Below, one piece after another: positions 8,809 through 64,000 of a DNA stretch of 64,000 bases; within the stretch, counting starts at the first letter, position 1, and every line of letters begins with the position of its first letter. The stretch is from Dimorphilus gyrociliatus. Its lineage: Eukaryota; Animalia; Annelida. The translations under genes were made by a program, and so were the position numbers. The stretch covers positions 579,100-643,099 of the forward strand of contig CAJFCJ010000011.1 in the NCBI GenBank assembly GCA_904063045.1, read 5' to 3'. The notes below the pieces were generated by a model. It searched no databases and had not been told where the DNA came from. It saw nothing but the letters and a program-made list of their open reading frames with translations.

Positions 8809-9564
8809 TTATCTGATTACTTGCTTAGTAACATCAACATACGTGGCTCCATCTGGTATTTTACAGTCATATTCCAGGAAATTGGCTAAGTCACCCCATT
8901 TACAATGCGTCTTTTCCTCTTCTTTATATAGTTTGCACTGTAGTGTTGTCTTCAATTCAACAATGACGCCCGAGACTTTCAGCTGTAGAATAATAATAAA
9001 AAAATTGTAATATGCCTTCAGACGACTAATTAGTACTCTAATCAATATAGAGAAAAGTTTTATAAGGAATTCACGGCCCACAGTGCAAATCAATATCTAT
9101 TTTCCTTGGGAAATGTGTGTCTCATGAGAAATAAGTGTAAAGAAAATTTACAATAATATTTAATATACTAACCCTTATTATAATGATGATCTGCTGTCTA
9201 TTTCCTTTTTTATTGGGTGAGAAACTGGTGCTTGTCCATTCACATGTATATAGGCTTTCTCCAGCCTTTCCGCTCTTCCCTTCGTTGAGAGAAATGCTAC
9301 TTCCTTGTATAGCTAGATCTCTATTGTGAAGGACGAGAAGACATTAAACGACCAAGTGATTTTGTAATAGAAATGAATAGAAAAAAACAAACGCTTACAA
9401 TACTTCAATTTCCTGTGTTAAACGTAATTCCAACAGATAAGGTGTATCGACGTTCAGTTTTAAGGTTTTTTCACTGTCAAATCGACCTCCATCTATTTTA
9501 AAACGAACTGGTTCATTGTCATCCTTCCTCTTCAACCCCAACTGCAATTTAAAGGTGGTCGCCA
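8809..9564 (-). CDS. CNRIP1: CB1 cannabinoid receptor-interacting protein 1 homolog (3 exons)
   Basis: Spliced minus-strand product MATTFKLQLGLKRKDDNEPVRFKIDGGRFDSEKTLKL...LYTCEWTSTSFSPNKKGNRQQII...HCKWGDLANFLEYDCKIPDGATYVDVTKQ aligns with human CNRIP1 (VFYKVDGQRFGQNRTIKL...[24 protein letters not shown]...[29 protein letters not shown]). Confidence 0.6.
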
Positions 9565-9750
9565 TAAGTAACGACAGCCAGCAGCTAAGGCTAATTTTTC
9601 CAAATATCGATCCCCCCACTAGCTACTGTAGGAAACGATGAAACCGCCTACTGATTTCACCGCCATCTTGTGGAAGCTTGAATAGACCTAATCATTTAAA
9701 TGTCACACTTTCATTGTCACAGTTTCTTATACCAGTTTTATTAGTCAGGT

Positions 9751-11372
9751 ATGACAGCTTCAGCGTTGCAATTGTTGAAAACGAATGAAATATTCTCGAA
9801 GGAGATTGAACCATTAGTAAACTCTAGTAATTTTCTTATTTATATGTTTATTAATTCTACCTAATTGTAGAAAATATTACACGAGAAAACCGCAGTTTTA
9901 TGCACCGATACAATCAAGAGACGATTATTTGACACAGAAGCATCGGTGAAAAATCTATTTCAATGTGCTGAGAGAGTTCTAGGAAGTAATTGGGAAGAGG
10001 AATTTCGAAGTAACAACTCGCTTAGATGATTATTGATCATTAAATAAAAAAAATGAAGCTATTTTTTTTTATAAAGAATGGCAGTCCGGAATAGAGACAG
10101 ACGAGGAGAAAATAACAATTCTTGAAGCATTAAAGAGTATAATTCGGTATACGATAATTTTTTATGCTAATGGGGGCAATTTTTATCTATCCAATCATCA
10201 TTCAATGTTTCCAATTTCTTTCAACGATAAAGTCAATAAACTAACTTCTCTTATCAATGCTGGTATTCCTTCTTATATCCCGTCCGTTTGGTTATCAATT
10301 GTTCAGCATGTTATGAGCTGTTTCGAAAAGATTCGCCTCCGTCCCCAAAATGATAAATGGCTAATTTCTGGCAATTCAGAGAAATTTCGTCGAAAAGTTC
10401 TTGGGTATGTGGTAGGTGGTGCTCCAATTCCATTCGTTCTACCCGCTTTCCCAATGAAGAGTAAGAATAGGATAAAGAAGACAATTGGTCCCCTCCCCGA
10501 TATGGCAGAATGGATTTCTTTGAAGCATTTGGCAAATTTTTGTAGGGAAATCCGTAAAATTTATGCACCTGGAGTAAAGATACTTATTTTTGGAGATGGA
10601 CGATTATATGGTAAAATATTAAAGTATGATGATAGCGAAATAACCGAATATGAAAGAGTTTTCAAGGATATGCTATCGAGATTACCTGAAGAAATTCACG
10701 ATCAACTCCTTTATGCCGGTATCGATGACTACTTTGAACGAGACATGGGATATGATAAAATTCGATCATACGTATACTCTCTTTATGATGTTACAATGGA
10801 AGAAGTTGATAATGCAATTAGGGTACATACTGCATTTTAGTATGTATTATATTTGTCTATACTAATCAGCACTTCAACATACTTTTAGACTAATGAAAAT
10901 ATAAATAACGTCTACAAGGGATTTGCACGCTATCTCGACGAGGACCTTGAAGGTGATATACCAAAGGATATTTCTAGAACAAAGCGCAAACAAATAACAA
11001 AGGATTTTGCAAGAAAATTGTTGAGAGGTAATATGGTTTATAGTTTGGTGATAAAGGATATTTTTCCTCATCACCTTCGTCTTTCCATACATCCTCATAA
11101 CAATGAGGATAAGGTTGGGGTTTCCCTGTTGGAGAATCAAAGATTTTCTGCTGGAACACCTGTAAGTTGATTACTTTTACGTTTCATTTCAATATAACAA
11201 AAAAACATTATGTTTTCTTCAGTGGCATCGGGTAGCCGCCAAGAAAAAAGATGGACATTGGTATTTCATGAGACGAATTGATGCTGAGGCAATGAATTAT
11301 AAATTAAAAGGGCAGTTTAACGGCGAAGGAACAGCCAACAGAGAAAATTGGCCTCATTATGTTGAAGAGTAA
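9751..11372 (+). CDS. DIT1/PvcA-family isocyanide synthase-like protein. Five exons: 9751-9816, 9871-10003, 10076-10822, 10889-11161, 11223-11372. About 455 aa.
   Basis: Exon 3 translates to ...VLGYVVGGAPIPFVLPAFPMKSKNRIKKTIGPLPDMAEWISLKHLANFCREIRKIYAPGVKILIFGDGRLYGKILKYDDSEITEYERVFKDML..., matching P. aeruginosa PvcA IAGFVARGEPIRFVLPGFPAKSPNPAKVLGVLPDMAERVALRFLSRLCLHIEAFYPPGAELLICSDGRVFADLVGVSDADVTAYREAIERLI. Exon 4 (NVYKGFARYL...RGNMVYSLVIKDIFPHHLRLSIHPHNNEDKVGVSLLE) matches PvcA RELYQGITRFL...RSNAWSALVDERFPQALRLSIHPQPSHSPKLGIQLLE. Exon 5 (WHRVAAKKKDGHWYFMRR) matches TPWHGVALLEGDGFRLVKR. The introns are canonical GT-AG, including GTAAGT at 11162 and a cttcag acceptor at 11222. Phases are consistent across all junctions. 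Confidence 0.75.
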
Positions 11373-11553
11373 AAAGTTTAAAGTACAAAATTTACAAATG
11401 AATCGAAATATATTTTGACTATTTAAAAATGGAAGAATAAATGATACTTTGAAAATATTTTGTCTTTGTTCTTATTGCATAATAATTTATTCAATTATTA
11501 AAATATTATATTTGTATTCAAAGTGGACGGAACGATTGAATGTGATAAACGAA

Positions 11554-14038
11554 TTATTTTTGTCTTACTGCCTTAATGAACATTGACTTCGTCTGTTCTA
11601 TGACTTGCTGATAGATTTTCAAATCTTCTTCTTTTGCTGATATAGATCTATCTAAAGCCATTTTCAGCATATCAATTTCATCACTTTTAAATAGAATATC
11701 ATTTTCTAAATCATCAATTTTTGTTGCTAATAAATCTGTTTCTGTTTCCTCGAGTTTTCTTCCTTCGCTTTTTAGTCTACCAACCTGTTTCTCAAGGATA
11801 GCAGTCTTTTTTCTTTCTGACTTTAAGTGTTGTTCACTTTGTAGTCTCTTTTCTTCACTATCTTGAACCCTTTTTTGCATAACTCCTATAAGTTCGACTA
11901 ATTTGTCACGTTCAACTTGAGCTGTTTGACTAGGGCGAAAAAACACAATCAAATAATTTAACTTCAAAAAAACTTATTAAATAATCTGTTACCTTAGTAC
12001 TTTGTAGTGTTCTATGTCTGCCCTCGGCGTTTCGGCTAATCGCGAAGACGATCTTGAAGATAATCTTGAGCTATTTCTTCTGGCAGAACCCATTTCTTCA
12101 GAATCGATCGTTACGACCGCGATATTATGTTCAATTCTGCATTGTGACAATCTAGAGGTCTTTTGAGTAAAGTGAGTTTTGGATTGAGAAGTTTTTCTTT
12201 TCAAACTATCAAACTCGTTCTCAAGCTCTATTAAATGATCATCGCGTTCACGAATAGTATTTTCCAACTGTTTTATTCTATTAAGATATTGTTCCGATTG
12301 CACTTTCAAATCAGACATATTTTTATTAAATTTTTCGCTAGAGTCAGATTTATTCTTAGTGGCAGACACCAAACCTTTCTGTAACTGTTCTATTTGTTTC
12401 TAAAATATTAAGAAAGTATCAATTATAGAATACGAATGACTATGTATCATTCAAAGGTTTATTACCATCAATGCTTGTATTAGCTCATTATCGTGGTTAT
12501 TCTTAGTTAGTAACGTTTGAGTTTGATTTTTCAGCGATTTAATTTCGTTGGAAAGAACTTTGTTTCTGAAGATATATTTAAATTAGTTCTTCAAAATCGA
12601 AATAAACATTTGTCTATTCTGTTACCTGGCCTTTGATGCGTCTAATTTTCCTTTAAGATCATCTCTTTCCTTCTCTAATTCTGAAATTGTTTCTCCCATC
12701 TTTTGTAAGTTTTCTTTTCTATCTTTTTCCAATTTCCTAATTTGATCTTTATGTTGGATATCCAAGGTGGCTGTCCGTCGACCAGACACAGCACTTCCAG
12801 TACCAAAATCCATTTCGGAGCCTTCTAACTGTGATTTTAATTCACTTACTTTTTGCTGTAAACTTAAAATTTGTTGAGATCTTCCTCTCCAAGTACTATC
12901 CGACTTTAACACAGCTTGAACGCTGGTGTTTTCACCGATTTCGTTAGAAAGTGCTTTTTGAGCCAGTTTTAGTTCCTGTTTTAAACTTGAATTTTGATTC
13001 CGATATTCAGCCATTTTCAGTTCGCTCTGTCTCAATTTTTCAGAGGTTGCTTTTAATTCTAGTTGTAATTTCTCTTCATCCAAGATTTCTCTAGGTTTTT
13101 CTGATCCTCCATTCTGTAGCTGTTAATATTTTATAAGATAGAGGTAAAAATAAGAGGATTGACGATATTACTTACTTGATTGCTCAACTCGTAGATTCTA
13201 CGTGTGGACAGTCGATTCTTGTTCCTTTCACTTTCTAATTCGGCATTTAATTCTCGTACTTTTTTGGATAATTCTACGATCTTCGTTGACGCTGCATCAG
13301 AAGTTGATCCCGCTGAAAATCTGTTGCCGTAAAATAATATATTACATTTGAAAATTAATTTTAAAGAAGAACACACACGTTTCTAATAGAATCTTATCTT
13401 TCTCCCATTTTTTCCTGAGTAATTTAGCTTCTACTTCCTTCTCTTTAACAAGTTGGAGTAAACGACCATTTTCATCTTCCAGGGATCTTATCCTATTCGT
13501 ATATTCCTCTTTAGCACTTTGAAATTCGTTTTTCAGTTGATCTTGCTGCATCGTATCCGCTCCCTAGTTTGAAAAATATATTTATTGTAAAATAAAATTC
13601 ACAATCTCTGTTTTGAGCATATTTTAAAGCGACCTCTCAATGTTTGAAATAAATACCACTTTACCCAATATTAAATATTTACTTAATTATTAATAACATG
13701 AACCTTTGCGATATAAGTCAAAACGGTTGAAATGTAAATAGAAAATATAAAACTGGGATTGATCCACTGTCATATTAGATTGTTGATTAGATAATATAAG
13801 TGAGAAAATACTAGGAGAATAAGTCAAAGCTGAGTTTCATTTCAATTTCATAACCAGAAAGTTGAACTATACTCACCATTAATCCTAAATCATCACTTAG
13901 AGTAAGAGACTCTTCATTATCCCCATTCTGTTGTTTAGATTTCGCAGCTTGCTGTTGTTTAATTCGAACAAATTTCTTTTTTTGTTTTTCTTGGATCGCT
14001 TCAAATTGTAACCTTAGATCGTCTTGTGTCGAAGTCAT
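11554..14038 (-). CDS. CCDC13: Coiled-coil domain-containing protein 13 homolog (multi-exon)
   Basis: N-terminal MTSTQDDLRLQFEAIQEKQKKKF matches human QNTLRLQFKAMQEMQHKRLQK. LEDENGRLLQLVKEKEVEAKLLRKKWEKDKI matches VDENGRLYKLLKERDFEIKHLKKKIEEDRF. STKIVELSKKVRELNAE matches ATKIVELSKKNRLLMAE. AEYRNQNSSLKQELKLAQKALSNEIGENTSVQAVLKSDSTWRGRSQQILSLQQKVSEL matches [58 protein letters not shown]. The C-terminal ...YQQVIEQTKSMFIKAVRQK matches ...YHEILGQVKSVFLQALRQQK. Confidence 0.8.
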
Positions 14039-15462: not shown

Positions 15463-15535
15463 TGGTTCCGCCGAGGATCGAACTCGGGACCTCTCGCGTG
15501 TGAAGCGAGCGTGATAACCACTACACTACAGAACC
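15463..15535 (-). tRNA. tRNA-Val (anticodon CAC), 73 nt
   Basis: The reverse complement GGTTCTGTAGTGTAGTGGTTATCACGCTCGCTTCACACGCGAGAGGTCCCGAGTTCGATCCTCGGCGGAACCA has a 7-bp acceptor stem, D-loop GTGGTTA, anticodon loop CTCACAC and T-loop GGTTCGATCC. It is near-identical to vertebrate tRNA-Val-CAC. Confidence 0.9.
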
Positions 15536-15619: not shown

Positions 15620-15692
15620 TGATTCCGCCGAGGATCGAACTCGGGACCTCTCGCGTGTTAGGCGAGCGTGATAACCGCTACACTACGGAATC
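15620..15692 (-). tRNA. tRNA-Val (anticodon AAC), 73 nt
   Basis: The reverse complement GATTCCGTAGTGTAGCGGTTATCACGCTCGCCTAACACGCGAGAGGTCCCGAGTTCGATCCTCGGCGGAATCA has a cloverleaf with anticodon loop CTAACAC. It differs from the neighbouring Val-CAC gene at a few positions including the anticodon. Confidence 0.9.
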
Positions 15693-27094: not shown

Positions 27095-30000
27095 ATGGTA
27101 AGTTGTGTAGTTTATGCAAAAAATCGTAACGTTTATCACAGCGATGGACACTCGCACGGCAGTATAAATCTTAACGTTGCCAAGTCGTATTTTTTAGTAT
27201 ATAAATTTTTTCTAAGTGTGTATTGGGCAGATTTGCTTTTACAGATCGAATATCGAACGAGATTTTGATAAAAGATAGTAAAACTTCTCACGATGTTAAA
27301 TTTTTGTGCCAAAATGTTCTGAACATCTTTGGAGCGATTCGGTACTCCGCCATTATGCTACTCGTACAATATTGGTCAACGTTTTAGCGAAATTCTTCAA
27401 TTATCGTAGGGTTGCCTACTAAACTAACGATGACTATTATATTTTCAGATTTATAACCGATTTCTTTATTTCAGTATGATCCTGCCTATCTTTCAGTAGG
27501 AACTGAAGTAAGTGCAAAATATCGAGGCGCTTTTTGCGAGGCACGAGTAAAGAAAGTTGTGAAACATGTTAAATGCAAGGTATAATTTATATTGCGTCCA
27601 AGGTTTTTTGTTGAATCATCACATAAATTAAATATCTTCAGGTGACGTTGGTAGACCAAACGCAACAGTCATTTTTTCTAAGTGATGAAGATATACAAGG
27701 GCATATTAAGGTAGCTACTTCGGATTAATTTCATGTAAGACTATATTTGCATAATTTTTAAACAAATAGCTAAACAACAAAGTGAAGGTAAAAAGATCAG
27801 ATAGCGACGAATGGTCACAAGCTATCATCAATAAAATTATTGATTCAAGTACCTACACCGTTGGTACGTATAGTTATTTCAATTTTGAAAACTAGCTCTA
27901 TTTGAAAATTTCCTTCCTTCAGAGTTTAATGATGGAGACGAAAATACTCTAAAACGGACACAAATATGTCCCAAAGGCGACAAGCATTTCGACAAAAGCG
28001 AGGTAACATTTGAAATTATTCTTCTCTTTACAGTTAACCACGCCTCTCTATACAGACTCTAGATAATTTACCGTTATCTCATCCTGAGCATTTTGGTATT
28101 CCTGTCAAAGGCAAGGACAGCTCAAAGAGAAAGAAGAATATCAATGAGTACGCCAATTTTTATAAATGTTAAAAAAATATTTCTAAGTAGTGCTTTTAGA
28201 TCTGATGAAAGTGATTCGGAGAATGATGAAGGACCTGAAAAGAAAAGAGTTTTCAAAGGAAAAGCATCTGATTCCATCGGTCTTCTCGTATTAGCAGATG
28301 TTGGTGAACGTAAAAAACAAACAGCCCCATGTTTAATAGTAAAGTTGACCGCAAGTGAGATTCCCGTTAGAGCAAAGGATCAAGTCCTTGTAAAAAGCTT
28401 TAGAGATAACAAATTGTAAGTACATCTTGAAAAAATTCAAGCTAACGACAATAAAGCAACTCATTGTAACTTTCTTTAGCTATGCTGTGTCTAAGAAGGA
28501 TATGAAGGAGTTTGACAAAGAGGATGCCAAAAGATATGATGATAAAATGCTGAGAACAAGTATAGAGAAAGCATTAACATACTTGGACACCCGTGAGTTA
28601 CCTTCCAATTGGCCAAAGAACTTATTAGCGGATGAAGACCCTACAAACGATACTGAAATAGACGATGAAGTGATGGTAGTAATCGTAGTCTCTGCCAATA
28701 GTATTACTAATTATCTTTTTTTAGGATTCTGAGGATGAGAAGTCCAGTTTAGAGAGAGATAATTTTATAGCTCATATATACAAGTTTAACGAAGAAAATG
28801 GAAGTCCAATCAGTAAAACACCGACTGTTGTCAATAAGGAACTGGACTTATTTAAGTTCTCTCAATTGGTTCGTCAGCAAGGTGGATTCAACAATGTTAC
28901 AAAAACTAATAAATGGAAACATATATACTCACGGATGGGATTACCTCCTTTCAACGGGGGTGTAACGCAACTGAGAAAAGTTTATAAACGGTAAATTGCC
29001 AAATATCATTTAATCGATTTTAATATATTTGAAATTTTAGTTATCTTCTGAGTTATGAGGACTTTGGCAGAAAATATGAGGCAATTGAGTGTCGATCATC
29101 AGGTCGTACTCGCGCAACAACAGCCAGAATGGCTATATCACAAAAAGAGAAATCAAAAACAATTGAAGATAGTGACAATGACGATAAGTCATTTACAAAA
29201 GAGGGAGAATCAACAAGCAATAATGATAAACCTAAATCTGGAGTAGGAAATGACCCTAGAAGTGAAAAATCCATTATTCTTGAACCTGATGAAAGCAAGT
29301 TGAAAAGGAGACTTGGTTTAAAAGAGGAGGATAACATTCGTAAGCCACGCGTTTCTAACTCTAGGGATGATACCCCTGGGAGGATTATGGTTATGCGTGA
29401 AAAAGGAGGAAGAGATGATTCTAAAAAACCTTTTGGAAATAGAAAAGAAGATGATGATAAAAGAAAGCGTCCTCAAAGAACTAGAAACACTAAAGACGAC
29501 GAGGAGGAATCAAAATTGGACAAAAGAAAAAAATCTAATGATTTGAAATCAGATGCGACGTCAAACTTTGATTCATCTGAACAAGATATCGACATATCGA
29601 GTTCTGAAAGTGCAACACCAAAAGGAAATAATTTACCTGATGTTATACCTATTAATTCTCGATTATTAGTGAGATACGGACGGGGACGAACCCTTAAAGC
29701 TTATGATGCAAAAGTAATTAGCACGGAGGAGCAAAATGATGAAACTTTCTATCTGGTCCATTATGCTGGATGGAACAACAGGTATGATGAGTGGGTTGGA
29801 AGAGAAAAAATTGTACAAATGCTAGAAGAGGGCGATGGAAAGTATCAAATGAAAAATACACGTCCCTTTGTATCACCAAGAAATAAAAATGCTGTTGTGG
29901 AAAAAGCACTTCCTGGAAGGAAAAAGCTGCTCTGTAACTCGGCTGAGGGTAAATTTAAGACAAAAGCTGGGGTAAAATCAAATACTCAGACTAAGGCTGG

Positions 30001-31681
30001 TCGATTAACTCGATCCTCCAGCATGGAAACGGCTCAGCTTCCCCCACCCCCTCGAAAAGGCAGAGCCCGCAAAACTTCAAGTGTTGCTGATAATGACAGT
30101 CAGACGTCAGATGTCAAAAGTACAGACGATTCGTTTCAAACTGAAGATCCACTAGCGAATGAAGTCACTGAAGATGAAACAATATCTATAAAAGACGAGA
30201 AAGTTGCAGAGGAACCTCCTATATTAGTCGAAGTTAAAACCGAACAAGCAATGAGCATAGTTGAAAAAGAATCTCCTGAGGTTGAAGTTAAACAGGAAGT
30301 GAACAAAGAAGTAGTTGAAGCAAAAGTAGCTGTCGAATTACCAGTAAAATCTCCAGGACGAGGTAGACCTCGTTCCTCAACCAAGTCTCCGAAAAATGCC
30401 TCTGTAAAATCCCGCAATCTAAAAGCTGAGCGTGAAGAACAAAAAGAAAAGGAAGAACCACCGAAAGAAAGTGTTAAGCCGAAAGAAAGTGTTAAGCCGA
30501 AAGAAAGTGTCAAACCGAAAGAACAGCCTGTTGTAGTTGAACCAGAACTCAAAGAGGAAACTGAAGAAAAAAAGAAGCTGGAAGAAAATGTACCTGAAGT
30601 TACATTAACAGCTAAAGTTGAGGAAATGAAAGAGATAGAACAAAAAGAAGAAACGACTGAATGTGTTAAGCCCGAGGAAACTGAAGAAGTTAAAGATGAT
30701 AAGGAGCCAGCTATCGTTGGAGATGTAGACTTGACTTGTAATGAAATTGGGGCAATAGAGAAGATGGAAGCTCTGGCCTCTCAAGAAGAAGAACGAAAGG
30801 AGACAGAGTGTCGATTACTTGAATCTGTAGGTGATGCTGCCGCAGCTGAAACAGACACCAAAAATGCAAAGAAAATTAAAAAAGCAAAGAAAGTGGACAA
30901 AGTGAAAGTTTTTAACGATGACGAAAAGAAAAAGAAAAGTAAGAAAGATAAAGACGATGCCAGTGCATTTACTCCGCCATATACTCCCCCTGAAGATATG
31001 GCAAAAAATAAAAGTGCTTCTTCTTCACCATCAGCACAAGGTGATGAAGTAGGAGGAAATCCTTCACCGATTAGCAATGGAAATTTAACTGCAGACAATG
31101 TGTCTGTTGCATCGACCTCCCGTCCCACAGAGCAAGTTACTCAGGTACCTGTATCCGCTCCTGTCAAGAAAAGAAGACCCAGGTTACGGGGTCGCAGATC
31201 AGCACGCCACAATAGCGACAGCGATGATAACCTCAAAAGTCCAAATTTCCATTCCCCATCCAAATCTATTCCTACATTAATTCACGTTGATCCTCAGCAA
31301 ATGGAACTAACTTTGAAAAAGTATAATTTGTCTTTCGGTAAGTGAATATTGATTTCAATTTCTTTAACTTTGCTAATATTTAAAATATCACACAGACGAA
31401 GGCGAGCAATTAGATGGAGACAATAAGATTGCTTTCTTACAAAGGAAAATGCAAGAAATTCGCACCATTTATATGCAGTTAAAAAGCGACTTATCTTGTT
31501 TAGACAGGAGGTATAAGAGATGTAGAAAAAGACATAAGCAAAGTAAGTCATATGAGTAAGAAGATATCAGGTTAGGTTATTTAAAATGGAATATTGACAT
31601 TTAGAATCAGAAGATACATCTTTTTCAACGAATTCGGCAACCTCGAGCTCATCATTCAATCACAACGGCGGAACGAGGTAG
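27095..31681 (+). CDS. ARID4: AT-rich interactive domain-containing protein 4 (RBBP1-like), at least 11 exons. Putative ATG-only first exon at 27095-27097; large central exon 29041-31341; two small C-terminal exons.
   Basis: [35 protein letters not shown] / [20 protein letters not shown] / [26 protein letters not shown] / [26 protein letters not shown] / [20 protein letters not shown] match human ARID4A ([53 protein letters not shown]...[53 protein letters not shown]). The ARID domain reads [87 protein letters not shown] chromo-barrel ([46 protein letters not shown]) and a long K/E/S-rich acidic region follow. The tail reads ...[74 protein letters not shown]. Confidence 0.8.
30461..30526 (+). 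repeat. In-frame 18-bp tandem repeat (3.5 copies) encoding (PKESVK)n within ARID4
   Basis: ccgaaagaaagtgttaag x2 then ccgaaagaaagtgtcaaa ccgaaagaa, giving protein [21 protein letters not shown]. Confidence 0.85.
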
Positions 31682-32580: not shown

Positions 32581-35205
32581 ATGAACGATATTGGTTGTAT
32601 AAATATTGGCTTGGAAGAGAAAGAAGCTTTATCTCAACTTTTACTCAAGCTACTACTTTTAACTTGTTCTAAGATGTCTAATTCATTATTTCATGACAAA
32701 TGCAGAAATTCTCATAGACTTCTTGATCGACTTACTCAAAATATTTATCGTTTATATTTACATCCCGAAGTTTTCAGTGATAGGAATTATATTCGAAAAA
32801 ATCTGAAAGCATATGAGGATAATGATGAATTTTTTTCGAAACTTGGATACTCATCTTTAAGTAAGACAATATAGTAAGTTTATAACTAATTAGTTACATA
32901 CGTTAAAGTTATTTACGATTAATATTTTAGCTGTATTCTAAAAGAGCCTTGGAGTTTATACAAGAAACTTTTAAACCCCGAAATCAATACATTTCCATAC
33001 AGAGTATACTTATTTAACAACTGCGAAAGTGAGGATTTAATTCGCTGTCGAATTCGCCTTTTGATTGAGGCGAGGCAACATAACCTTGTCTTATTCGTCT
33101 TAAATTCCTGGCTACAGTTTGAATCAGTTCGCTATAATTCAGAGTTAAGATGTTATGCAATAGTAAATGCCTATCTATATGGTGATATTGGGGCTCTAAA
33201 TGAATATGTGGGTTAAAGTCATTTCAATTTTTATTTACGAAATCTAATTTAGCATTTATAGCTCAAGTATTTTACATTTAAAGACATAATTTTTTCTTTG
33301 ACTTTTTTAAAAAAAAGTATAACTTATCATAAAGACAAAGAACCCGCAAGGAAAGGCAAGGAAACACTTAAACATTTCCGTTTATTTCATATAACTACAG
33401 TACTTTAATTTCAGGTCACGGTCCCACTTCATGGCATTTGAATTTATTTTCGTCGACACCATATTACTTATCTATCCAATCGGACACTCTGCAACATCTA
33501 ATAAATACAGTATGCAATCATTCTCAGGTTTTTCAGCTTCTTGGATCTTCACACCTACAGCTAGGATATGAAGTAAAACTATAATTTCGATTTAACATTT
33601 AAATATTAACAAACGTTCTTGCCATTTAGGAAACACTTTACCAATGGATAGAAGAAGTAATTACTAACTCAAATCAAAAAAACTTTTTGTTTGAAAAATT
33701 AATCTCAAGTATTAAAGTTGATTTATTAAATAAAGTCTCATTAATTATTAATATCTTCAGCAAACTGGTAAAAATTTCTAGTATTTCTGATATGCTCTTG
33801 AATTAAATAATTTATTCAAGCTTTCATACTCTTTGAACTCTCAAATAGGGCAAAGCAAAAGAAAACTTTGGAATTATTTTGAAATGCGTTATGTTTTCAC
33901 TTGCAAAAGTTTTTTATTTTGCTGAAGAAGACAAGGAAAGTGATTTACTTGAAACTGCAAATCTATTTGAAGCCTTATCTAATACAATGAAAGATGCTTA
34001 TCCTTTGTTTCGCCGTGCTGCATCATTAGCGAGTTTCACGTTAAAACCGAGTAAATCGACGAAGGATGCGATCATTGACTCATATGAAAGACTCCAAGAA
34101 CCTCTAACTTCAATTCTTATCATTCAGAAGCACGATATAAAAGGCCAATTTGATCATAATTTACGTGGAAATATTAAAACTTTTCGAGAATTTTTTTATT
34201 CGGACTCAAAACGAGTAATCGTTAAAGAAATAACCAAGGCTATGACAAATATAAGGAGCTATTGTGCTACAAATGTAGATTGGCCAGAGGAAATTATTCT
34301 TTTCGAGTATGTTCTGGATACGAATAACATAATATAATAATTTGAATATTTGATATATACTTTCCAGATATGCTTTACCAACTTTTGAGATCGACGACGA
34401 AAATATTTTAATTGCGGTCTTTCATATTCTTGCAGCTGTGACTCGGCGTCGACTGTTGGCGCTGACTCACGATAAGGAGATTTTAAAAAATGTTCTTGAC
34501 GATATGCTTGAAGCTATAGATAGGAATATAAGTGTCGAAAGAGAGTCTGTTAGACTGCAAAGTGTGTGCGATGAAACAGCTGGGTCACTCACGTCAAATA
34601 TTAATACATACCTACAAAATATAGATAGAATATTTCCACCTCTCGAAGATGGTTTGCTTAAAATGAATAGTATCTTTGACAAAAAGAAACTGGAATATGA
34701 AAAGAAATATAATAACTGTGAAATTGAACTTCGCAAGAAGAGAAAGATTGGCTTGGCATGTTATCACGCTGCTTCTCTAGACTATGATTCTGATATGAAA
34801 TGCCGGTTATCAGGGAGAAAGTCTGACATGGAAACGTGCGATACTAAATACACTATACGTGTCAAATTTATCAAAGAAAAGATATCAGAAACAGTTGATA
34901 AATCTTTTTTGATACCGTTTTCTGATCTGAATTCTAGAGTATTGTCGGAAACTTATAGCAATGCTATTTTCAAAGAGTTTGAGCAATATCCAGCTTATTT
35001 CTACAAAACAAAAATGAATGCAGATAAATATGCAATAATGTTTTTTGACGAATCGAAACAGTATATCACCCAGACAACACTAGAAAATGTTCAAGATTGC
35101 GGTAAAAAAAAGAATACATTAGAAAGTAAAAATGACATAAGCTCGAACATTTCTAAAATAGACTCTAGTAGAAGTTATTTATATGTAAATGGTCACAGAC
35201 AATAA
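32581..35205 (+). CDS. Large multi-exon gene of unknown family (at least 6 exons), about 700 aa predicted
   Basis: Consecutive open exons have GT-AG boundaries. They read MNDIGCINIGLEEKEALSQLLLKLLLLTC...; CILKEPWSLYKKLLNPEINTFPYRVYLFNNCESEDLIRCRIRLLIEARQHNLVLFVLNSWLQFESVRYNSELRCYAIVNAYLYGDIGALNEYV; GHGPTSWHLNLFSSTPYYLSIQSDTLQHLINTVCNHSQVFQLLGSSHLQLGYE; ETLYQWIEEVITNSNQKNFLFEKLISSIK; the 33879-34337 ORF; and 34365-35205 (...LIAVFHILAAVTRRRLLALTHDKEILKNVLDDMLEAI...). The product looks helical-repeat like. No family recognised. Confidence 0.4.
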
Positions 35206-35447
35206 GTTGCTGCAAAATGAGTTTGTGTAATTTTCAATTTATGTTTTCCGATCCTCGTCGAAAAAAAAGTAGCCGTTTATTTACAGGATTTCAATGATAG
35301 ACATTTGGAAGTTTAAATAATGTACGCTAATTTTTCTAAGAATATTAAAAAAATTTATAGGTGTAAATAAATATTCTTTCTGCTGTATTTTGAAAAACAA
35401 AAGCAATAATTGTCACTTTTAACTACATTTAAAAATATGAATTATAA

Positions 35448-36922
35448 ATGCTATTGTATTTTTATTTTCAAGTATTTTTGTGTATTTTTGTTCAAACTAA
35501 AAAATTACAAACGCTCAGAAAGACAAAAATTTTTCATTTAAAACAATTTTACAGAAGATACCTAGAGAAAGACGCGTATTATCCAGACGAAGAATATGCT
35601 TTTTCTGAAATTTACTCAAGAACTTTGTGGCGAAGTAAATCAGACTTCGTTTCAATCGAAAAGTTAAAGACTTTTAATGATTTTTGTGAATGCGCTGTTT
35701 CTTCAACTGAAATAACTGTAGCTTGCGATAAAAGTCCAGATAAAAAGAGAAAATCTAACCGGTTATGTAATCGTAAAGGGTTTCTTGGTAGGGAGTCACT
35801 TGTTATAAAATGCAATATGCTTAATAGACAAGGATTAAATAAAAGGCCGCAAGTACGAGTTTTAGCTGAGGCAATTTCATCTTATAAAACAAAAATTGAA
35901 ATAATTAACTGTCCTGCTGACTTCTTTAAATTCCTTCCCGATTGCCAACTTAAACCGGAAGTTGGTTACTTTTATGAAGGTATGGATTTTTAAAAATTTT
36001 TCAGTTATTTGTCTAATATTTTCATTCTTAAATAGAAAACAGAGCTAATAAATTAGAAGCTGAATTGGTGTTAGTCAATACCCCAAGCGTTCCTTGCGAA
36101 CTAATCGGGGATAATGTAAATTTAACATTAATTCTAGAGCCACCTGCTACTGAGATAGCTCGCTATTTTTTCAAGCCCGATGATCGGCAGGATTGGCTGA
36201 GCTGGATCATACAAATGAATATGACTGATCATGATATACATTATTTTCTAATTTCTAATATAATAAGACCAAAACACTGTAAATTTTCAGGCCCTAAGAT
36301 TCTACTATCCAACATTAATATACTATTTCAGCCCTTTGCCTTCAAAGTAAATATCGTTTTAATTGATAATATTCTAAGTTTATTCAAAATGGAAGAATTA
36401 AAGATGTTGGATACCATTGTATTTTCAATGAATACTATTGTGGAAGTTACTATACGCGAACCTGAGGATGAGGAAGAGAAGGCTTTAATGATAAATAAAA
36501 TAAGACAATTAATTGTTAAAAAGATATTAGCTGAGGGATGTGAAAGTTCTCATGGAGCAGCCCTCTTAATTCAATATTTACCATATGCCCTTAACATAAA
36601 ATACGGAAAGATAGATTATTGGCCGGAGGGAGATATATATGTTTTTATTGAACACGCTGATGGAGAAGTTGGAGTTTTATTTTACGATTACTGTTGTTAC
36701 AAGGAAAAATCAGTAGCATATAGTATGCCTAACGAGGTTATTCGAGATGAAAATGGGATTAATCGCATTGTGATAAAAAAGGAAGATCAACTTTGGGAAT
36801 TTCCTTTAGATAATTGCCCTAAACGCCCGAAATATAGATCGTATCCGAATGAGACGTCGCTAATTAAGCAATATGCTGAAAACCTGCTAAATGAAATTTA
36901 TGGAGTAGGAGTGGCAGATTAG
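35448..36922 (+). CDS. Unknown protein (2 or more exons: about 35448-35993 and about 36011-36922). May be the 3' half of the preceding gene.
   Basis: The two long ORFs share a strand and are joined by a short intron (GTAT.. donor after ...EGMD; aaatag acceptor at about 36010). They read ...GFLGRESLVIKCNMLNRQ... and TELINLEAELVLVNTPSVPCELIGDNVNLTLILEPPATEIARYFFKPDDRQDWLSWIIQMNMTDHDIHYFLISNIIRPKHCKF...YWPEGDIYVFIEHADGEVGVLFYDYCCYKEKSVAYSMPNEVIRDENGINRIVIKKEDQLWEFPLDNCPKRPKYRSYPNE. No family recognised. Confidence 0.35.
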
Positions 36923-36990
36923 AAGAAACATTTAAGTCTAAAAGTAATTATTTGTTTATTTAAAGAAAAAGAGACCTTGATAAACATAGG

Positions 36991-38065
36991 TTATTCTATC
37001 GACTCTTCCCTGTTCATAGTCGTTAATGCTCTTTTGAATACCTCTGAGACTTCTCTAGGCATTTGTTTTCCATATAATCGAATGTATCTACATAAGGTTA
37101 AACCTTGGACAGAGTTAGGATCTACGCCTTCGGGCCATTTTTCGGAATTAAATACTTTCATCATTGTTGACAAAGTCAGTCCAACGTTTGATGCTCTTCT
37201 GAAATTCTTTTCTTCCTCTACTGGAGGAGGTGTTGCTTTCCTAACATATGGTTTGGCTGTTTCTGTGATTGTAGAAGAGTTATAAAGTTTACAATTGGCA
37301 CATACAAAAATAATATACCATATTTAGATATATTTTCGTATAAAGTCTCTTTCTTCAAGTCTAAGTTGTCTATAATGCCAGTTTCTTTCTCAAGTAATTT
37401 TTTTCTTTTATATTCCTCTCTGCGTTTTGAAGGCGGTTCTTCCCATTGTTTTCTTTGAAACACACCCTCGCTAATCAAACGACCAGTCGAATCTTTCCTA
37501 TACAATGGAAGAAGTTCATTATCTAGTTGCTCTTTTCGCCTTATTTCTAAAAGTCTTCTTCTTCTCATATTCTCTTGCGCTATTGAATCATTTTTAATAG
37601 GTGAATTCTTGTTACTTCCATTAAAGGGATGAGCCTTCAACCAATTTTCAACTTTTTCCTTCTGTTCAATTCCCTCTAAGCTGTCGAAACGAAGTATAAT
37701 ATATTTTTATTTAGCGAACTTTAGAGAGTTTATAATTGCGATAAACTGATTTAAGTGAATCATAAAATTCTGCCTTTTTTTAATAATAAAATATTAATAT
37801 ATCTCTACCGTATTCTTCTTTCTATCTTTTTTCGCTCTCCAGCTAATCTGACCATTGCAACGTAAACATTTTGCTGTAGACGTTCAATTCTTGTTAAAGC
37901 CGCATTCTGTTGATTAAACCAACAGTCAACAGACTGTGACAGCTTTGATTTTACCGCTTTATTCCTTCCAACGGTTGTTGGATGAGATTCACTAATAAGT
38001 GGTCTAACTAGTCCATGAAGGTTGTCTCCACTCATTTGGGAGCGTTTGTACCTCATCGCTGCCAT
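36991..38065 (-). CDS. Basic coiled-coil protein, 3 exons, unidentified (possibly mitochondrial/ribosomal-like)
   Basis: Exon 1 is MAAMRYKRSQMSGDNLHGLVRPLISESHPTTVGRNKAVKSKLSQ... Exon 2 reads KAHPFNGSNKNSPIKNDSIAQENMRRRRLLEIRRKEQLDNELLPLYRKDSTGRLISEGVFQRKQWEEPPSKRREEYKRKK. Exon 3 reads ...MMKVFNSEKWPEGVDPNSVQGLTLCRYIRLYGKQMPREVSEVFKRALTTMNREESIE*. Its 3' end lies only about 70 bp from the 3' end of the convergent plus-strand gene ending at 36922. Confidence 0.35.
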
Positions 38066-38771
38066 ATTTTGAAATACTCTTTGGGGGCAAAAAGTTTGAG
38101 AAGAGGGAGTAAGCACGACCTACCAAACAAAGATTTAGTTAGTCAATTAAAATCCAACAATAAGAAAGGCCAATATTCGATATATATAAATGAGATTTTT
38201 ATTGCAAATCTGGTAATCCGTTCAATCGTACTAAAAAATACACTGTAAACACATTTTCGTGCTTAAAATAAATACAATTCTTTCAGACTAGTGCATTTGA
38301 AAGAATTTAAAAAAGTACTGCAGCGCTCTTGAGAGAGAATTAACTGTATGATATGTAATTAAATGGTATATACTACAGACATAAAACAACGTTTTAAGCA
38401 AATATTTTCCATAAATTCATAATATCCCATTATCCTAAGCTATTTTTAATTGATTCAATAAATAAACTTAGTTTTATGAACGCTTGTGATAAAAATTGAG
38501 ATTTTCCATATAGCAGAATAATGTAAACTTAAATAATTCAAAAGATCATTCGGCTGTACATTAAGAATTGAGTTTTTCTCCTATTTATAAATATTAAACT
38601 TATCCTTTATTACATTTTTAATAGGCTTAGTGATCCTTTAAAATAAATTACACAATTACAAAATATAGCGTCATTATACCATCACTTTTAAATTTTAAAT
38701 TTCAGCTATTAAAACATCGTTTAACACCATATCAATATCTTTCGCAAAAAAATTATCACTAACAATATACT

Positions 38772-40076
38772 ATGACAGACTGTCCCTGCAAAGAAGACTT
38801 ATCCAAGAGAACAAAGAACAAATGGAAAATTTTCTCGAAAAGAAAACCCTTCACGAATGAAAAAAAAGATAAATGCAGCGTTTGCACAAATATGTTCAAT
38901 GCTTGTTCGATATGCCAAACACCAGTGGTACAGTTTCCTATTGTTTTCCAGCCGACAGAAATACGAGGAGGTAGTTCAGTTAATAGCTTCAAAGCTATTC
39001 TAGTACCAAATGTCGAAACTTCTTCAAAGACACTTTTCCAAATCAATTTAGGACAGTTTATTTTTGATTATCATACTGTAGAGATGGTTGAATTGAATTA
39101 CGAAAATGAAAATGCTAGAGTTATCCTATATTGTACAATAGGGTTACAATCCGGTAAGACAAATTTTAATGGTTATGCTGTTGAAAAAGATCAAAAGTTA
39201 ACCCTAATCTGTACCTGGCGATCAAAGGAAGATGCTGGAAAATCTTTTAAAAGACAACTAAACATTAAGCCTTTTGTAGAGGCTAAAACAGATCAATATG
39301 TTGAAGATGATGATGCCTCATTTCATATACAACTTAGACCAACTGGTTTCATAGAAGACGATGAAAATATATATCAAGTTGATGATAAAGAGAGGAGACC
39401 TATATCCGTCTCAATTGAAATGGACTCAGATGCTAAAATATTTGACGAGGAACTATCAATAGTTCATCACAACATGAGTCGGCATGAACCAGGCGTTTGG
39501 AGCTGGAAAAGGTTTCATAGAAAGACGTCTAATTCCTTAGATGATAAACCAATCGTTTGTTCCCAATTTCAATATCAAGGTTTAGAAACGTTTCGTCGAC
39601 CAGAAACATTCATTCGCATTGTTAGCGATACTATCGATGAAAAACTAATAAGGGCGGCCGTTACCGATAATCCCATTCTTTTAGCCGTTATAAAGGCGTT
39701 CGAAGTAAGGTTATCAGAAGCAACTGTAATAAATATTGATGAAATTATTAAAAGACAATTTGAAGCCGTGCTTTTTAAACCAAATTCATTTAAAGAAATT
39801 GTTTATAATATAGACATTGAAACACCTTCAAGGGAGCGTCAAAAGTATGTTACCATTGTTTCGGAGCAAACGAGTGGAATTATTAACACGGAAACCGTTC
39901 CACTAACTTATATTGTTAAAGAAGATTCCTCCTCCTTTGAAGATGGTCTTCAAGTTGTCAACAAATCAGAGGATTCTCTAGACGATAATGAAATATATAT
40001 TATGGTTTCAGAAATTGGTTTTACTGAAAACAAAGTTCTTTTGAAGATACTGAATCCTTTTAAATACTTCAAGTAG
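38772..40076 (+). CDS. 434-aa intronless ORF with a Cys-rich N-terminus (CPCKED...CSVCTNMFNACSICQTP), unknown family
   Basis: A long uninterrupted ORF has a genuine ATG at 38772. No recognisable motif beyond the N-terminal Cys cluster. Confidence 0.4.
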   Translation: MTDCPCKEDLSKRTKNKWKIFSKRKPFTNEKKDKCSVCTNMFNACSICQTPVVQFPIVFQPTEIRGGSSVNSFKAILVPNVETSSKTLFQINLGQFIFDYHTVEMVELNYENENARVILYCTIGLQSGKTNFNGYAVEKDQKLTLICTWRSKEDAGKSFKRQLNIKPFVEAKTDQYVEDDDASFHIQLRPTGFIEDDENIYQVDDKERRPISVSIEMDSDAKIFDEELSIVHHNMSRHEPGVWSWKRFHRKTSNSLDDKPIVCSQFQYQGLETFRRPETFIRIVSDTIDEKLIRAAVTDNPILLAVIKAFEVRLSEATVINIDEIIKRQFEAVLFKPNSFKEIVYNIDIETPSRERQKYVTIVSEQTSGIINTETVPLTYIVKEDSSSFEDGLQVVNKSEDSLDDNEIYIMVSEIGFTENKVLLKILNPFKYFK

Positions 40077-40300
40077 GTTGCATTTTGTAAATACTCTATT
40101 AATTTTTTATTAATTAAAGATTATAATTTTTTATTCAATTAAGAAAAAACTTAAAGGAGTGTTTACCTACTCATGCTTCCAATTTTATAAGCGTCCTCTC
40201 CTGGGTACTACAGAATTACTGGATATCAGGCGAAAGAGAGGATGGTTTATGCAATGATAATCGAACAGCATCATTTTGCTGGAGACGTACATCAACTCCA

Positions 40301-42303
40301 ATGAATAAGCATATGTGGAACGAAAGAAATGCCAGATCAGATGGAATAGACTTGGGAGCTATATGGAGGTCTGATTTGAAAAATGATATTGCTATGGACA
40401 CGGAAAATCAGTCCAGAGGAGAAAATGAATTTTGGACAGAAGACTTTGGTATTGTCGAGTTAAGGAATAGTGCATTTACTTCGGAAGAAGTTAAAACTTT
40501 ACCTACTTCTATTAAGGAAGAGACTTTTCCAGTTGTTGTTGACCATGAATCTCTACGTGCCGAATCAGTGTCACTTGAGGATGCTGTCTCGACTAATTTG
40601 AATAATGACCATGTTGTTTATGACGAACGGGAACAAGAAATTGACGAGAGGTTTGATGTAAAGGTCTCTCCGGAGTCTAATTTCGAAGAAGATTTGATTC
40701 TTGTCAATGATTTGGAGCCATCACTCATAGAATCTTTAGATGATAAAAACGATTCAAAGATTCCAACGATCAAAATTAAAGAGGAACTTGGAGGGACATA
40801 CTCTATCTTGTCCGAAACTGACCAGGAGAATAAATTGGTAATTGAAAATGAAAAGAATACATCTATCATTGAAGGGAGTAATTCTCTTAAACAATCGTTT
40901 AATATTGATGAAAGTGCAAATAGCATTCAACAATCGAAGGAGAAAGAGGCAATTAACATTCGTGAGGAAAATTTGATAATTAATGAAAACCCAGCAGAAA
41001 ATAACGATAAAGACGATAATGCTATGATCCAAGACAATATAGATGATAAGACATCTCCGAAAAGTCCCTTAGCCCTTGAAATAAAAAAAGAGAAAAAAAA
41101 CAAGCGTAAATTTTGGAAACGAAATCATAAGCCTTCAAACATAGAGGATAAATCTTCCAGAGAAGACTCAAAAAGACGATCTAAAAAACGAAATTTACTT
41201 ATCAAATGTTTAATTGGAGGGGGAACAAATTCTTCAATTGATCTCAGTCGACAAGAAGTCAAAGTTAATGAAGAAAAAAAACAATCAGTTATTGAACTTA
41301 TTGATAAGATAAGATCAGAGGAAAATATCTTGAAACCCCAGTCCAAAAAGAGTAATATATCTATGAACTCGTCAAAAACTTCTATTAAATCAAAGAGATC
41401 ACAAGCTCTACTGTCTAACAGACAGAGATCTATGGGAAGTATAAACTTGCTTTCACAGAAGGAAAGAGAAGAGAAGGAGCAGGAGGATAAAAAAAAAGAT
41501 GAAGAAGAAGAGAAGAAAAAAGTCTCAAAATCTAATAAGAAAAAATTTTTTAATTTCAAACCAAGAAAAATTATTACAAAGCATCCTAAGAAGTCAGATT
41601 TAAAAAAACGTGCTAGTGTTCGCCTATCGGAAGGATCTCGAACAGTAAGGAAAGCAAGAGAATGTAATGAAACTGAGGAAGCGCTCTTCACTATGATCTC
41701 ACAGGGAAGTCAAACTGCTCAGAAAAATCCTCATAGTGAAATTTGTGAAAAAATAAGTCCATTTTCCGTTAATGAACCTCAATCCCTCAGGGAAGATATT
41801 GTTAACGAAATAGAACGTCGTATTATTCAAGAAGCTACTTTACATAAATACCTTGCCCTATGGTAAAAACTTAATATTTTCTTATTATTTTACCGTATAA
41901 TGATTTACTACCCAAAAAAACATAGGAGAAACGAAGAGGAAACTAACAAAAGGATGGATCTTTTAAGTGAAATGCTTAAAAGAATGGAAGAAATAGAATC
42001 GGAAATGATGAGAACTAGTTTACCTCCCGCTCAGGCTAAAAAGACAGATCTTACAATGACTGTATTCGAAAATTCTCCACTACAAGGTTTGCTAAATATT
42101 TTTCGATACTTTTTGTTATTAATTTAAACATTTCTCATTATATATAGATTTATACAAAGAATTTATAAATGATAGATCAAAGCTTAAAGCGAAATATGAC
42201 ATGATAACTAACAATGTGCAAAAACAAGCCGTACTTGAAAGCGTGGATGAGATTATTAAAAGTTATACTTTATTTAAGAAGGCATTGGAAGCAAAGATTG
42301 TAT
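40301..42303 (+). CDS. Low-complexity acidic/basic protein. Three exons: 40301-41861, about 41919-42089, about 42146-42303. Unknown family.
   Basis: The 521-aa ORF starts at a real ATG (40301). It ends at a TATG|GTAAAA donor and continues through two short exons (...RNEEETNKRMDLLSEMLKRMEEIESEMMRTSLPPAQAKKTDLTMTVFENSPLQ / DLYKEFINDRSKLKAKYDMITNNVQKQAVLESVDEIIKSYTLFKKALEAKIV*). It is rich in K, E, S and N. Antisense ORFs in this region are low-complexity artifacts. Confidence 0.4.
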
Positions 42304-62264: not shown

Positions 62265-64000
62265 CTATCTGGACTCTATGCAGTCAGCAGTTTTTGTAAG
62301 CTTAATTGTATCAATGGCAATATCTCCGGAATAGCCTTTGGCTCTCCATGCTCCAAAGGTAATCTGGGTATAGGAATCAAACTTATACATATTTCTTAAA
62401 AAAATCTATTTCTTACTTTGTCATTGTAATCTAAACTTATAGAAACTGTGGCTTTCCTCCAAATTGTACTTGTTGTTTGTTGTTTACTTAAGGCCCAAAC
62501 CTCTTCAAGTTTGTTGGCTGATTCTTTAAAAATTGATAGTTTACCAATATGAAATCCATACATGTTGTACATAAATTCTAGGCAGTGTTGTCCTCCAGAA
62601 CTTAATGCCGGAGTGGAAATTCTAAGAATATTTAGAGTTTAGAGATTATAAAAAGGTTCCATTTCCTATAATAATACTTACAGTGCATAATCACGATTAT
62701 TTTTATTGGTGGCTTCAATGTAAAGGTAAAAAGGTAAGGAATCTGCTTCTCTCGGACCTGTTTTAGAAGATTTTGTCTCGCCAGAATGAATTGTCCAATC
62801 AAACTTATCTTCATCAGATTGAATCATATTGCAAAGAGTTTTCTGACCACTCTCCGTTTCGAAACTGCAGGAAAAAACTATTAGGTCACCTTTAGTTGTT
62901 TGCAAAGTTGAAGTTTGAGATTCTGTTGTGCTTTCGAAAAAAACTGAATCGCTTTGTGTTGATAATGACGGAATCGTTGTTATCTGGTAAGTTGTCTGTT
63001 TCGAGGTATTTTCGGTTGTTTCTGATTTTGAATCAAAAGCTGTAGAGATTTTAGAAGTATCAGTTGTAGATGGAGCTAATGTTGATTTTAAGTCTTTGAA
63101 AGTAGAAGGATTACTTTGTGTTTCTTCTACAGACAATTCATTTGTTGTGATGTCATTTTTACCGACTGAGACTGAGAACTTTGTTGAAGATGTTTCGTGT
63201 TGAATTTCTGTTGTTTCTCTATACGTATTTGTTTGAGACGCCGATGACGACGACGATGATGATTCTGTTGACATACTTGGGGTTTCAGTTGAAGGTGAAG
63301 ACATATTAAATAATGATGTGGTCAAAGTAGTTGGGAATTTCGTTGAAATTGTAGTGTCTACTGTTGATTCATCTTTGTAAAGTGAAGTTGTTTGGGAAGA
63401 ATCTGTCTTGGAATGGGAATTTTGCGTAAAATACGTGGTAAAACTTTTTTCTGTTGATTTTTTTGTCGTAATTTTATTTTTTTTATTAGTTGTCGCCAAC
63501 GGAAGAAGAGTCCAATATGTAGTGTCAATTCTTTCTGTAACGGCTGCAGGAGTTTTTGAAGTAGTTTCTTTAATTAGTGTGGACAGGTTCATTGTCATTG
63601 TGGATTGTTCTGGATCCTCCTTTGTACTTGTCATCAAAGGAGTAGAAAATTCTGTGACAATATTGCTTGTAACTGAATCTGCCGTAGATTGTTTTAGACT
63701 CGTTTCTCTATTTGTTATTTTAGACGTAAACGATTCGGTTGGAGGGTCTGTCTTAACTGAAGCTGTTGTAGATATCCCTAGCGTTGTTTCTTTAGTTGTT
63801 GAAATTAATACATCAGGATTTCTATGGCATATTTTAGATTGTATCCAACTAATAACAGACTTCTCATTCAGCGTCTTGAAATTTCTTAACCATATAGTAT
63901 TATCGCCATAGGGCTCCGAAATTAATGGTCCTAATTCTTTCCATCTAACATATCGTGATATACTAACTATGACTACTTTAACACCAAGCTCCTTGAGTTT
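62265..64000 (-). CDS. MAM domain-containing Ser/Thr-rich mucin-like protein. 3' part only; the gene continues beyond the window end.
   Basis: The C-terminal exons encode a MAM domain: DLIVFSCSFETESGQKTLCNMIQSDEDKFDWTIHSGETKSSKTGPREADSLPFYLYIEA...; ...CLEFMYNMYGFHIGKLSIFKESANKLEEVWAL...; ...YTQITFGAWRAKGYSGDIAIDTIKLTKTADCIESR*. These are preceded (63637-64000 and beyond) by a long S/T-rich, likely O-glycosylated region. Confidence 0.6.

Follow-up and report, generated by a model that had tools for sequence, protein, structure and literature searches.

The 64-kb stretch of Dimorphilus gyrociliatus DNA analysed here (part of contig CAJFCJ010000011.1, to be referred to as the window) contains, at positions 9751-11372 on the plus strand, a gene for a member of the PvcA/DIT1 family of isocyanide synthases (ICS). 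It is a genuine nuclear gene of this annelid. From its sequence and its modelled fold, the product is probably a functional, stand-alone ICS, and the sequence comparisons make horizontal acquisition from a microbial donor (a bacterium or a marine protist) the most likely origin. The full reading, an annelid gene for a stand-alone synthase of the PvcA/IsnA type that was acquired by transfer and would have the activity typical of the family, is one that we consider reasonably likely.

The region 9001-12500 was read in the three forward frames, and five open segments were joined at GT..AG boundaries. The resulting coding sequence (CDS) of 1374 nt is uninterrupted and encodes 457 residues, rather than the 455 given in the first-pass annotation of this DNA. 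The four introns are 54, 67, 66 and 61 nt long, in phases 0, 1, 0 and 0. The elements of the gene are as follows.

9751-9816, plus strand: predicted exon 1, with the ATG, 22 codons and a GTAAAC donor at its end; outside the public CDS, no homology support.
9817-9870, plus strand: predicted intron 1, 54 nt, GT..AG, phase 0, GC content 0.20.
9871-10009, plus strand: predicted exon 2, 139 nt; outside the public CDS, no homology support.
10010-10076, plus strand: predicted intron 2, 67 nt, GT..AG, phase 1, GC content 0.21.
10077-10822, plus strand: exon 3, encoding the conserved core (LPAFPxKSxN, PDMAE, GDG) from 10205 (Met112) on.
10823-10888, plus strand: intron 3, 66 nt, GT..AG, phase 0; present in the public model DgyrCDS8449, and protein P0001 spans the junction (NAIR/TNENI).
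10889-11161, plus strand: exon 4, encoding the RLSIHPH motif.
11162-11222, plus strand: intron 4, 61 nt, GTAAGT..CAG, phase 0; present in the public model, and P0001 spans the junction (AGTP/WHRV).
11223-11372, plus strand: exon 5, encoding the TPWH motif and the C-terminus, with the TAA stop codon at its end.
11436-11441, plus strand: AATAAA, a candidate polyadenylation signal read from the sequence, 64 nt past the stop codon.

The motifs quoted in the first-pass annotation are all found in the exons to which it had assigned them, with FVLPAFPMKSKN, LPDMAEW and GDGRLY in exon 3, HHLRLSIHPH in exon 4, and WHRVAA in exon 5. The gene is already publicly annotated, and the annotation includes a precomputed Pfam domain. 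The public protein, DgyrCDS8449 (346 residues), is 100% identical to the spliced product from Met112 (ATG at 10205) to the stop codon, and its model shares introns 3 and 4 with ours, but not predicted exons 1 and 2. All four of the spliceosomal introns proposed earlier have GT..AG boundaries. Introns 3 and 4 are corroborated by DgyrCDS8449, whereas introns 1 and 2 are predictions. The description of the intron phases as conserved has no basis: orthologues with introns are not known, and in genomic DNA the closest homologue (contig L001, see below) is intronless.

The assignment to the PvcA/DIT1 family was confirmed with the spliced product. Pfam family PF05141 (DIT1_PvcA) matches residues 179-435 with 212.6 bits (gathering score 26.4) and an E value of 1e-62, covering profile positions 4-271 of 273. 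The sequence also matches PvcA of Pseudomonas aeruginosa (PA2254, PDB entry 3e59), the synthase of the paerucumarin pathway, over residues 175-443 (E=5.7e-31), as well as the isonitrile synthase PIsnA (PDB entries 9dh4 and 9dhm; E of about 4e-27). The strength of the PF05141 and PvcA matches places the observation far beyond chance. PvcA and the annelid protein have the Pfam domain and the fold in common, together with the motifs LPAFPxKSxN, PD(M)AE, DG, RLSIHP and TPWH, although their sequence identity is only about 27-30%. Unlike the PvcA gene, the annelid gene has introns, is located on an animal chromosome, and may encode about 111 extra residues at the N-terminus.

Conservation across the family was used as a proxy for the residues that contact the ligands. 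The annelid protein retains 36 of the 42 columns that are conserved at 85% or more among 189 relatives, among them all those with a conservation of 97% or more (Pro194, Lys196, Lys203, Asp210, Glu213, Gly234, Asp242, Gly243, Arg381, Ser383, His385, Lys392, Pro408, Trp409 and His410). These residues are located in the P-x-K-S, K, D-x-x-E, G, D-G, R-x-S-x-H, K and P-W-H motifs. In a separate alignment (A1), all 21 invariant columns are present in the annelid protein.

An AlphaFold2 model of the 346-residue form, computed with 44 aligned sequences, has a mean predicted local distance difference test (pLDDT) score of 91.3 and a predicted template modelling (pTM) score of 0.89. With the program Foldseek, the model matches PvcA (3e59) with an E value of 3.9e-22, template modelling (TM) scores of 0.79 with the query and 0.89 with the target as the reference for normalisation, and an rms distance of 2.6 Å. 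The model can also be superposed on PIsnA in complex with L-Tyr and with the isonitrile product (9dh4 and 9dhm, E of about 1e-21). The annelid protein therefore matches the L-tyrosine/L-tryptophan isonitrile synthases of the PIsnA/IsnA type in both sequence and fold, and the agreement of the model with ligand-bound PIsnA supports an intact architecture for substrate binding.

The gene is flanked closely on both sides by animal genes. The first-pass annotation had placed it between CNRIP1 and CCDC13, and both were confirmed.

8812-9565, minus strand: CNRIP1, the upstream neighbour (PF15043, E=3.3e-29), head-to-head with the ICS gene; its ATG at 9565 is 185 bp from the predicted ICS ATG.
11554-14038, minus strand: CCDC13 (DgyrCDS8450), the downstream neighbour, tail-to-tail with the ICS gene; 814 bits to DgyrCDS8450, with its stop codon 181 bp from that of the ICS gene.

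The name CCDC13 is carried by orthologues of DgyrCDS8450 from lamprey, amphioxus and Owenia, an annelid. DgyrCDS8449 and DgyrCDS8450 have consecutive gene numbers and are located on one contig of 1,302,597 bp. The composition of the gene is that of its surroundings, as had been claimed. The GC content of the ICS CDS is 0.373, compared to 0.362±0.037 for host open reading frames (ORFs; 29 long ORFs of the window), and the GC content at third codon positions (GC3) is 0.312, compared to 0.282±0.031. Relative synonymous codon usage (RSCU) correlates with that of the host set at 0.785, where the mean for a host ORF against the rest is 0.742. The introns have a GC content of 0.20-0.27, and at 54-67 nt they are in keeping with the species, which has a median intron of 66 nt and is without trans-splicing and operons (PMC7854359). 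No meaningful direct or inverted repeats, as a signature of insertion, were found flanking the gene. A scan for bacterial promoters and terminators gave sites in numbers at chance level, and such a scan is not relevant to a eukaryote. The earlier view of this gene as a host gene and not contamination thus holds, based on its introns, its composition and its linkage to CNRIP1 and CCDC13 on one contig.

The start of the protein is where the public model and ours differ. We lean towards the longer model of 457 residues, as judged from the sequence upstream of Met112, while the competing model, in which the true product is the annotated protein of 346 residues from Met112 (10205) and exons 1 and 2 are untranslated or untranscribed, has somewhat less than an even chance. 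The earlier reading had given the protein about 110 extra N-terminal residues compared to PvcA; by alignment the extension is about 126 residues (residue 49 of PvcA is aligned with residue 175). No stop codon interrupts the frame in the 56 codons that precede Met112, and the probability of this is about 0.012 if estimated from base composition and 0.024 if estimated from the empirical frequency of stops. The 127 nt before Met112 contain three ATGs in other frames (10078, 10164 and 10170), by which initiation at Met112 would be hindered. In addition, the codon usage of the proposed upstream exons resembles that of coding sequence in the proposed frame, and not in the other two. The log-likelihood ratio for exon 1 is +0.21 per codon in this frame, as against -0.94 and -0.51 in the other two, and the values in the proposed frame are +0.25 for exon 2 and +0.15 for the third upstream stretch, compared to +0.18 to +0.21 for the core exons. 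(Stop-free random segments were uninformative as a coding null because the window is mostly coding, and the contrast between frames is the usable measure.) The GT and AG sites of the upstream exons are also at phase-compatible positions.

On the other hand, the public model begins at Met112, and no homologue was found for the N-terminal 111-178 residues in a BLASTP comparison with 44 relatives or in a Pfam scan with E values up to 1. The 346-residue form spans the entire PvcA fold (the TM score of 0.89 being normalised to PvcA), and its length is close to the 330 residues of PvcA. The extension claimed earlier is thus favoured by the stop-free frame and the upstream ATGs, with the public start, the missing homologue and the complete fold of the shorter form against it. 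The two divergent start codons, of CNRIP1 and of predicted ICS exon 1, are separated by 185 bp (9566-9750). If the longer gene model is right, CNRIP1 and the ICS gene would share a very compact bidirectional promoter.

In the known chemistry of the family, the nitrogen of Trp or Tyr condenses with a carbon from ribulose-5-phosphate (PMC7949033). By analogy, the substrates of the annelid enzyme would be an aromatic L-amino acid (Tyr or Trp) and ribulose-5-phosphate, and the enzyme would convert the α-amino group to an isonitrile with the carbon supplied by the sugar phosphate. The preference between substrates is not readable from the sequence. PvcA and IsnA each have a partner, as the PvcA operon includes the iron/2-oxoglutarate-dependent (Fe/2OG) dioxygenase PvcB and IsnA works with IsnB, whereas no such partner of the annelid gene is located within 64 kb. 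All ORFs of 50 residues or more in the six frames of the window were scanned with Pfam. The scan found no dioxygenase of the TauD/PvcB type (PF02668), no cytochrome P450 and no other biosynthetic domain, in agreement with the first-pass annotation, although short exons may escape a scan of this kind. Because neither an Fe/2OG dioxygenase nor a P450 is nearby, the product would be a simple α-isocyano acid, unless an unlinked tailoring enzyme is encoded elsewhere in the genome. Hydration of such an acid may give the corresponding N-formyl amino acid. This is what has been proposed for yeast Dit1, whose product was recovered as N-formyl-tyrosine (PMC7345447). Like the annelid protein, Dit1 is a eukaryotic, cytosolic, single-domain member of the family, and it makes the N-formyl-tyrosine precursor of the dityrosine layer of the spore wall. 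By this analogy, an N-formyl derivative is a plausible fate for the product of an enzyme without a partner. The Dit1 gene is clustered with the P450 gene DIT2, however, while there is no P450 in the annelid window.

We put forward tentatively, at somewhat below an even chance, the more specific proposal that D. gyrociliatus expresses an active ICS and makes an isonitrile derived from an amino acid, or its N-formyl derivative, and that the gene was transferred long ago from a marine microbe or protist that has yet to be sampled. An unlikely alternative, though one with some weight, is that the host gene no longer encodes an ICS, and is now a relic without expression or encodes a protein that has taken on another role (N-formylation as in Dit1, binding only, or a different amino substrate). 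Several observations point in this direction and weigh against an active synthase. Six fairly conserved positions are changed in the annelid protein (S241G, V245L, D248K, F332Y, R364G and A367V). Residue 364 is an arginine in 92% of the relatives and a glycine here, and the SDG sequence has become GDG. There is no tailoring enzyme in the window. Expression of the gene is a prediction from the sequence, and no transcript-derived copy of the ICS protein was found among the protein-collection matches to the 457-residue query. An exact-sequence look-up of DgyrCDS8449 gave no contig on record. Moreover, yeast Dit1 is reportedly not replaceable by PvcA (PMC7345447), which indicates that the family is not chemically uniform. 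Against loss of the function, the reading frame is intact over at least three exons, all the near-invariant residues are retained, the fold is predicted with confidence (pLDDT of 91.3), and the codon usage fits the host, as is expected of a gene that has been maintained for a long time. An active synthase is therefore the interpretation that we prefer.

Representative proteins, 1.84 billion in number, were searched exhaustively with phmmer. This gave 1451 matches with E values up to 0.001, of which the best 150 were listed. The best matches other than the protein itself have 34-37% identity. Cluster names were consulted for 30 relatives, with few organisms among them. The named bacteria are Crossiella, Kofleriaceae, Pigmentibacter, Hymenobacter and Vibrio, to which a bacterial-type contig (L003) can be added, where a stand-alone ICS gene is located among those for ClpB, MraZ and UvrC. 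The other named relatives are a metagenome-assembled genome of a micrarchaeote, many fungi, and protist transcriptomes (the diplonemid Namystynia, and entries of MMETSP and EukProt). The family had been described as characteristic of bacteria and fungi. Both are indeed present, but the description is too narrow, as the nearest relatives include transcripts of marine protists; homologues are also reported in Acanthamoeba, oomycetes and a moss (PMC5974471). In the protein searches, no other animal was found among the named relatives within the best 150 of the 1451 phmmer matches. The annelid Owenia is present in the database, yet it gave no ICS match.

The best-scoring relative (P0002, 446 residues, 33% identity) is encoded by an intronless ORF at positions 933-2273 of L001, a 2.6-kb contig from run SRR25018404 that is AT-rich and eukaryote-looking. 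A splice-acceptor-like sequence (tttcag) lies just before its ATG and an AATAAA follows its stop codon, and its source could be another eukaryote with an ICS. The neighbour of P0002 on this contig has no Pfam match. Protist homologues with N-terminal sensor domains (GAF in P0004 and P0007, PAS in P0074, and the MMETSP entry P0190) are also among the best-scoring relatives, with 33-38% identity. Like the annelid protein they are eukaryotic, and they have about 420-570 residues with N-terminal extensions. The annelid N-terminus, in comparison, gives neither a GAF nor a PAS signal and does not resemble the protist extensions, and a sister relation to these proteins has no bootstrap support.

As an observation in its own right, fusions with other domains are found in several eukaryote-type ICS homologues from marine metatranscriptomes and protists. 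GAF is present in P0004 (on L002) and P0007, PAS in P0074 of Namystynia, and an RRM domain in P0048, while P0049 is named as a fusion with an MFS permease. No description of a GAF, PAS, RRM or MFS fusion was found in the papers on ICS that were consulted. Homologues are thus spread more widely in marine eukaryotes than the picture of bacteria and fungi would have it, including the fusions with GAF, PAS and RRM.

For the origin of the gene, horizontal transfer is the most parsimonious explanation because the distribution of the family is patchy. The transfer would have to be old enough for at least two short introns of the host type to be gained and for base composition and codon usage to become those of the host. 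Of the earlier claim of a horizontally acquired, domesticated gene, the domesticated part is borne out by the linkage, the introns and the composition, while the transfer is argued from the patchy distribution. In a neighbour-joining tree of 190 sequences (269 columns, 200 bootstraps), the annelid branch lies between a short prokaryote-type group and a eukaryote-rich group. Several points tell against a transfer, or at least against a firm statement of it. The annelid protein is on a long branch, with all distances at 1.29 substitutions per site or more. Its best sister group was recovered in 11% of the bootstraps, so the case is built on patchy distribution and not on a nested position in the clade of a donor. 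Most of the nearest relatives are without an organism name, and an unrecognised animal could be among them. The best-scoring relative, moreover, is the one on the eukaryote-looking contig.

We consider it improbable that the gene is instead an ancient eukaryotic one, passed on by vertical descent, lost in almost every animal lineage and kept in Dimorphilus. Such a history would fit the scattered eukaryotes that have homologues (fungi, Namystynia, and the MMETSP and EukProt protists, along with those of PMC5974471), the attachment of the long Dimorphilus branch near the boundary of the two groups in the tree, and the fully host-like composition. It would, however, need very many independent losses. 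No other named animal was found among the matches listed, although proteomes of an annelid and of other metazoans are in the database, and the annelid protein is without the N-terminal GAF or PAS domain of the protist-type homologues. A contaminant or a chimeric assembly, with a microbial gene misjoined to annelid sequence, can be dismissed as very unlikely, because, overwhelmingly microbial as the family is, at least two host-sized spliceosomal introns that are used in the public model interrupt the conserved motif regions, GC3 and codon usage are indistinguishable from those of the neighbouring genes, no insertion repeats are present, the start of CNRIP1 and the end of CCDC13 are within 185 and 181 bp inside a 1.3-Mb contig with consecutive gene numbers, and no sequenced microbe in the phmmer search has a relative above 37% identity.

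Transfers into animals have precedents. Bdelloid rotifers carry horizontally acquired biosynthetic genes, and the annelid gene resembles transfers of the rotifer type in being a single gene for a microbial-type enzyme among host genes, with introns gained and the composition of the host. Dimorphilus is not known to be rich in transferred genes. Rotifer transfers in general are the subject of PMC4632278. Full-text literature searches found no paper on an animal ICS, and there is no ICS among the entries of a compendium of metazoan transfers. The D. gyrociliatus genome paper includes no analysis of horizontal transfer, and its supplements do not mention the ICS gene. Lim et al. (2018) name 'metazoans' once as outliers; no corresponding entry was found in their table. 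The gene thus adds an undescribed member to a known family of enzymes and a further case to a known phenomenon; the system itself is not of a new kind.

Elsewhere in the window, only ordinary animal genes were found. Matches in the Pfam scan correspond to a NIF phosphatase, a prenyltransferase beta subunit, a weak match to RhoGAP, a protein with three RRM domains, UTP15, RPC5, DHHC, an ARID4-like protein, MLF, TRMT6, TANGO6, UBX, Sad1/UNC, BAH and MAM. Two tandem tRNA-Val genes, with anticodons CAC and AAC, are located on the minus strand at 15463-15535 and 15620-15692, their starts 157 bp apart, between CCDC13 and the gene for the RRM protein. The ARID4-like gene (about 29033-31342, plus strand) has RBB1NT, ARID and Tudor-knot domains, and its long acidic and lysine-rich region of low complexity contains three copies of a tandem KPKESV peptide repeat. 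Long ORFs on the plus strand at 33849-34334, 34354-35202, 35448-35990, 36032-36919, 38763-40073 and 40127-41863 have no Pfam match, and the run as a whole (about 33849-41863) looks like one or two very large genes. One stretch of the window alone is GC-rich, at 56000-58000, with a GC content of 0.428 where the other parts have about 0.32-0.36. Minus-strand ORFs at 55966-57549 coincide with it and belong to the chain that has a BAH-domain match. Finally, a long Ser/Thr-rich, mucin-like ORF at 62681-64000 on the minus strand continues past the end of the window. Minus-strand ORFs close by contain the MAM domain (PF00629, E=2.5e-14), which may be part of the gene with the mucin-like ORF.

Isonitriles as natural products are considered to be microbial, and those of sponges and sea slugs are terpenoids of unclear enzymatic origin. 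An isonitrile synthase in an animal would surprise natural-product biologists. The scope of the finding is one gene in one species, and one already in the public annotation. It is directly testable, since D. gyrociliatus can be cultured, public RNA-seq and cap analysis of gene expression (CAGE) data exist, and the assay with Tyr or Trp and ribulose-5-phosphate is established. A PvcA-type synthase encoded by an animal would add animals to the holders of isonitrile chemistry, and would be a clean single-gene example of the acquisition of a natural-product enzyme across kingdoms. If the proposed activity is true, it would be the first demonstrated case of PvcA-type isonitrile biosynthesis by an animal, and the product could serve in metal binding, in chemical defence, or in hardening of the cuticle or egg capsule, comparable to the role of Dit1 and Dit2 in the yeast spore wall.

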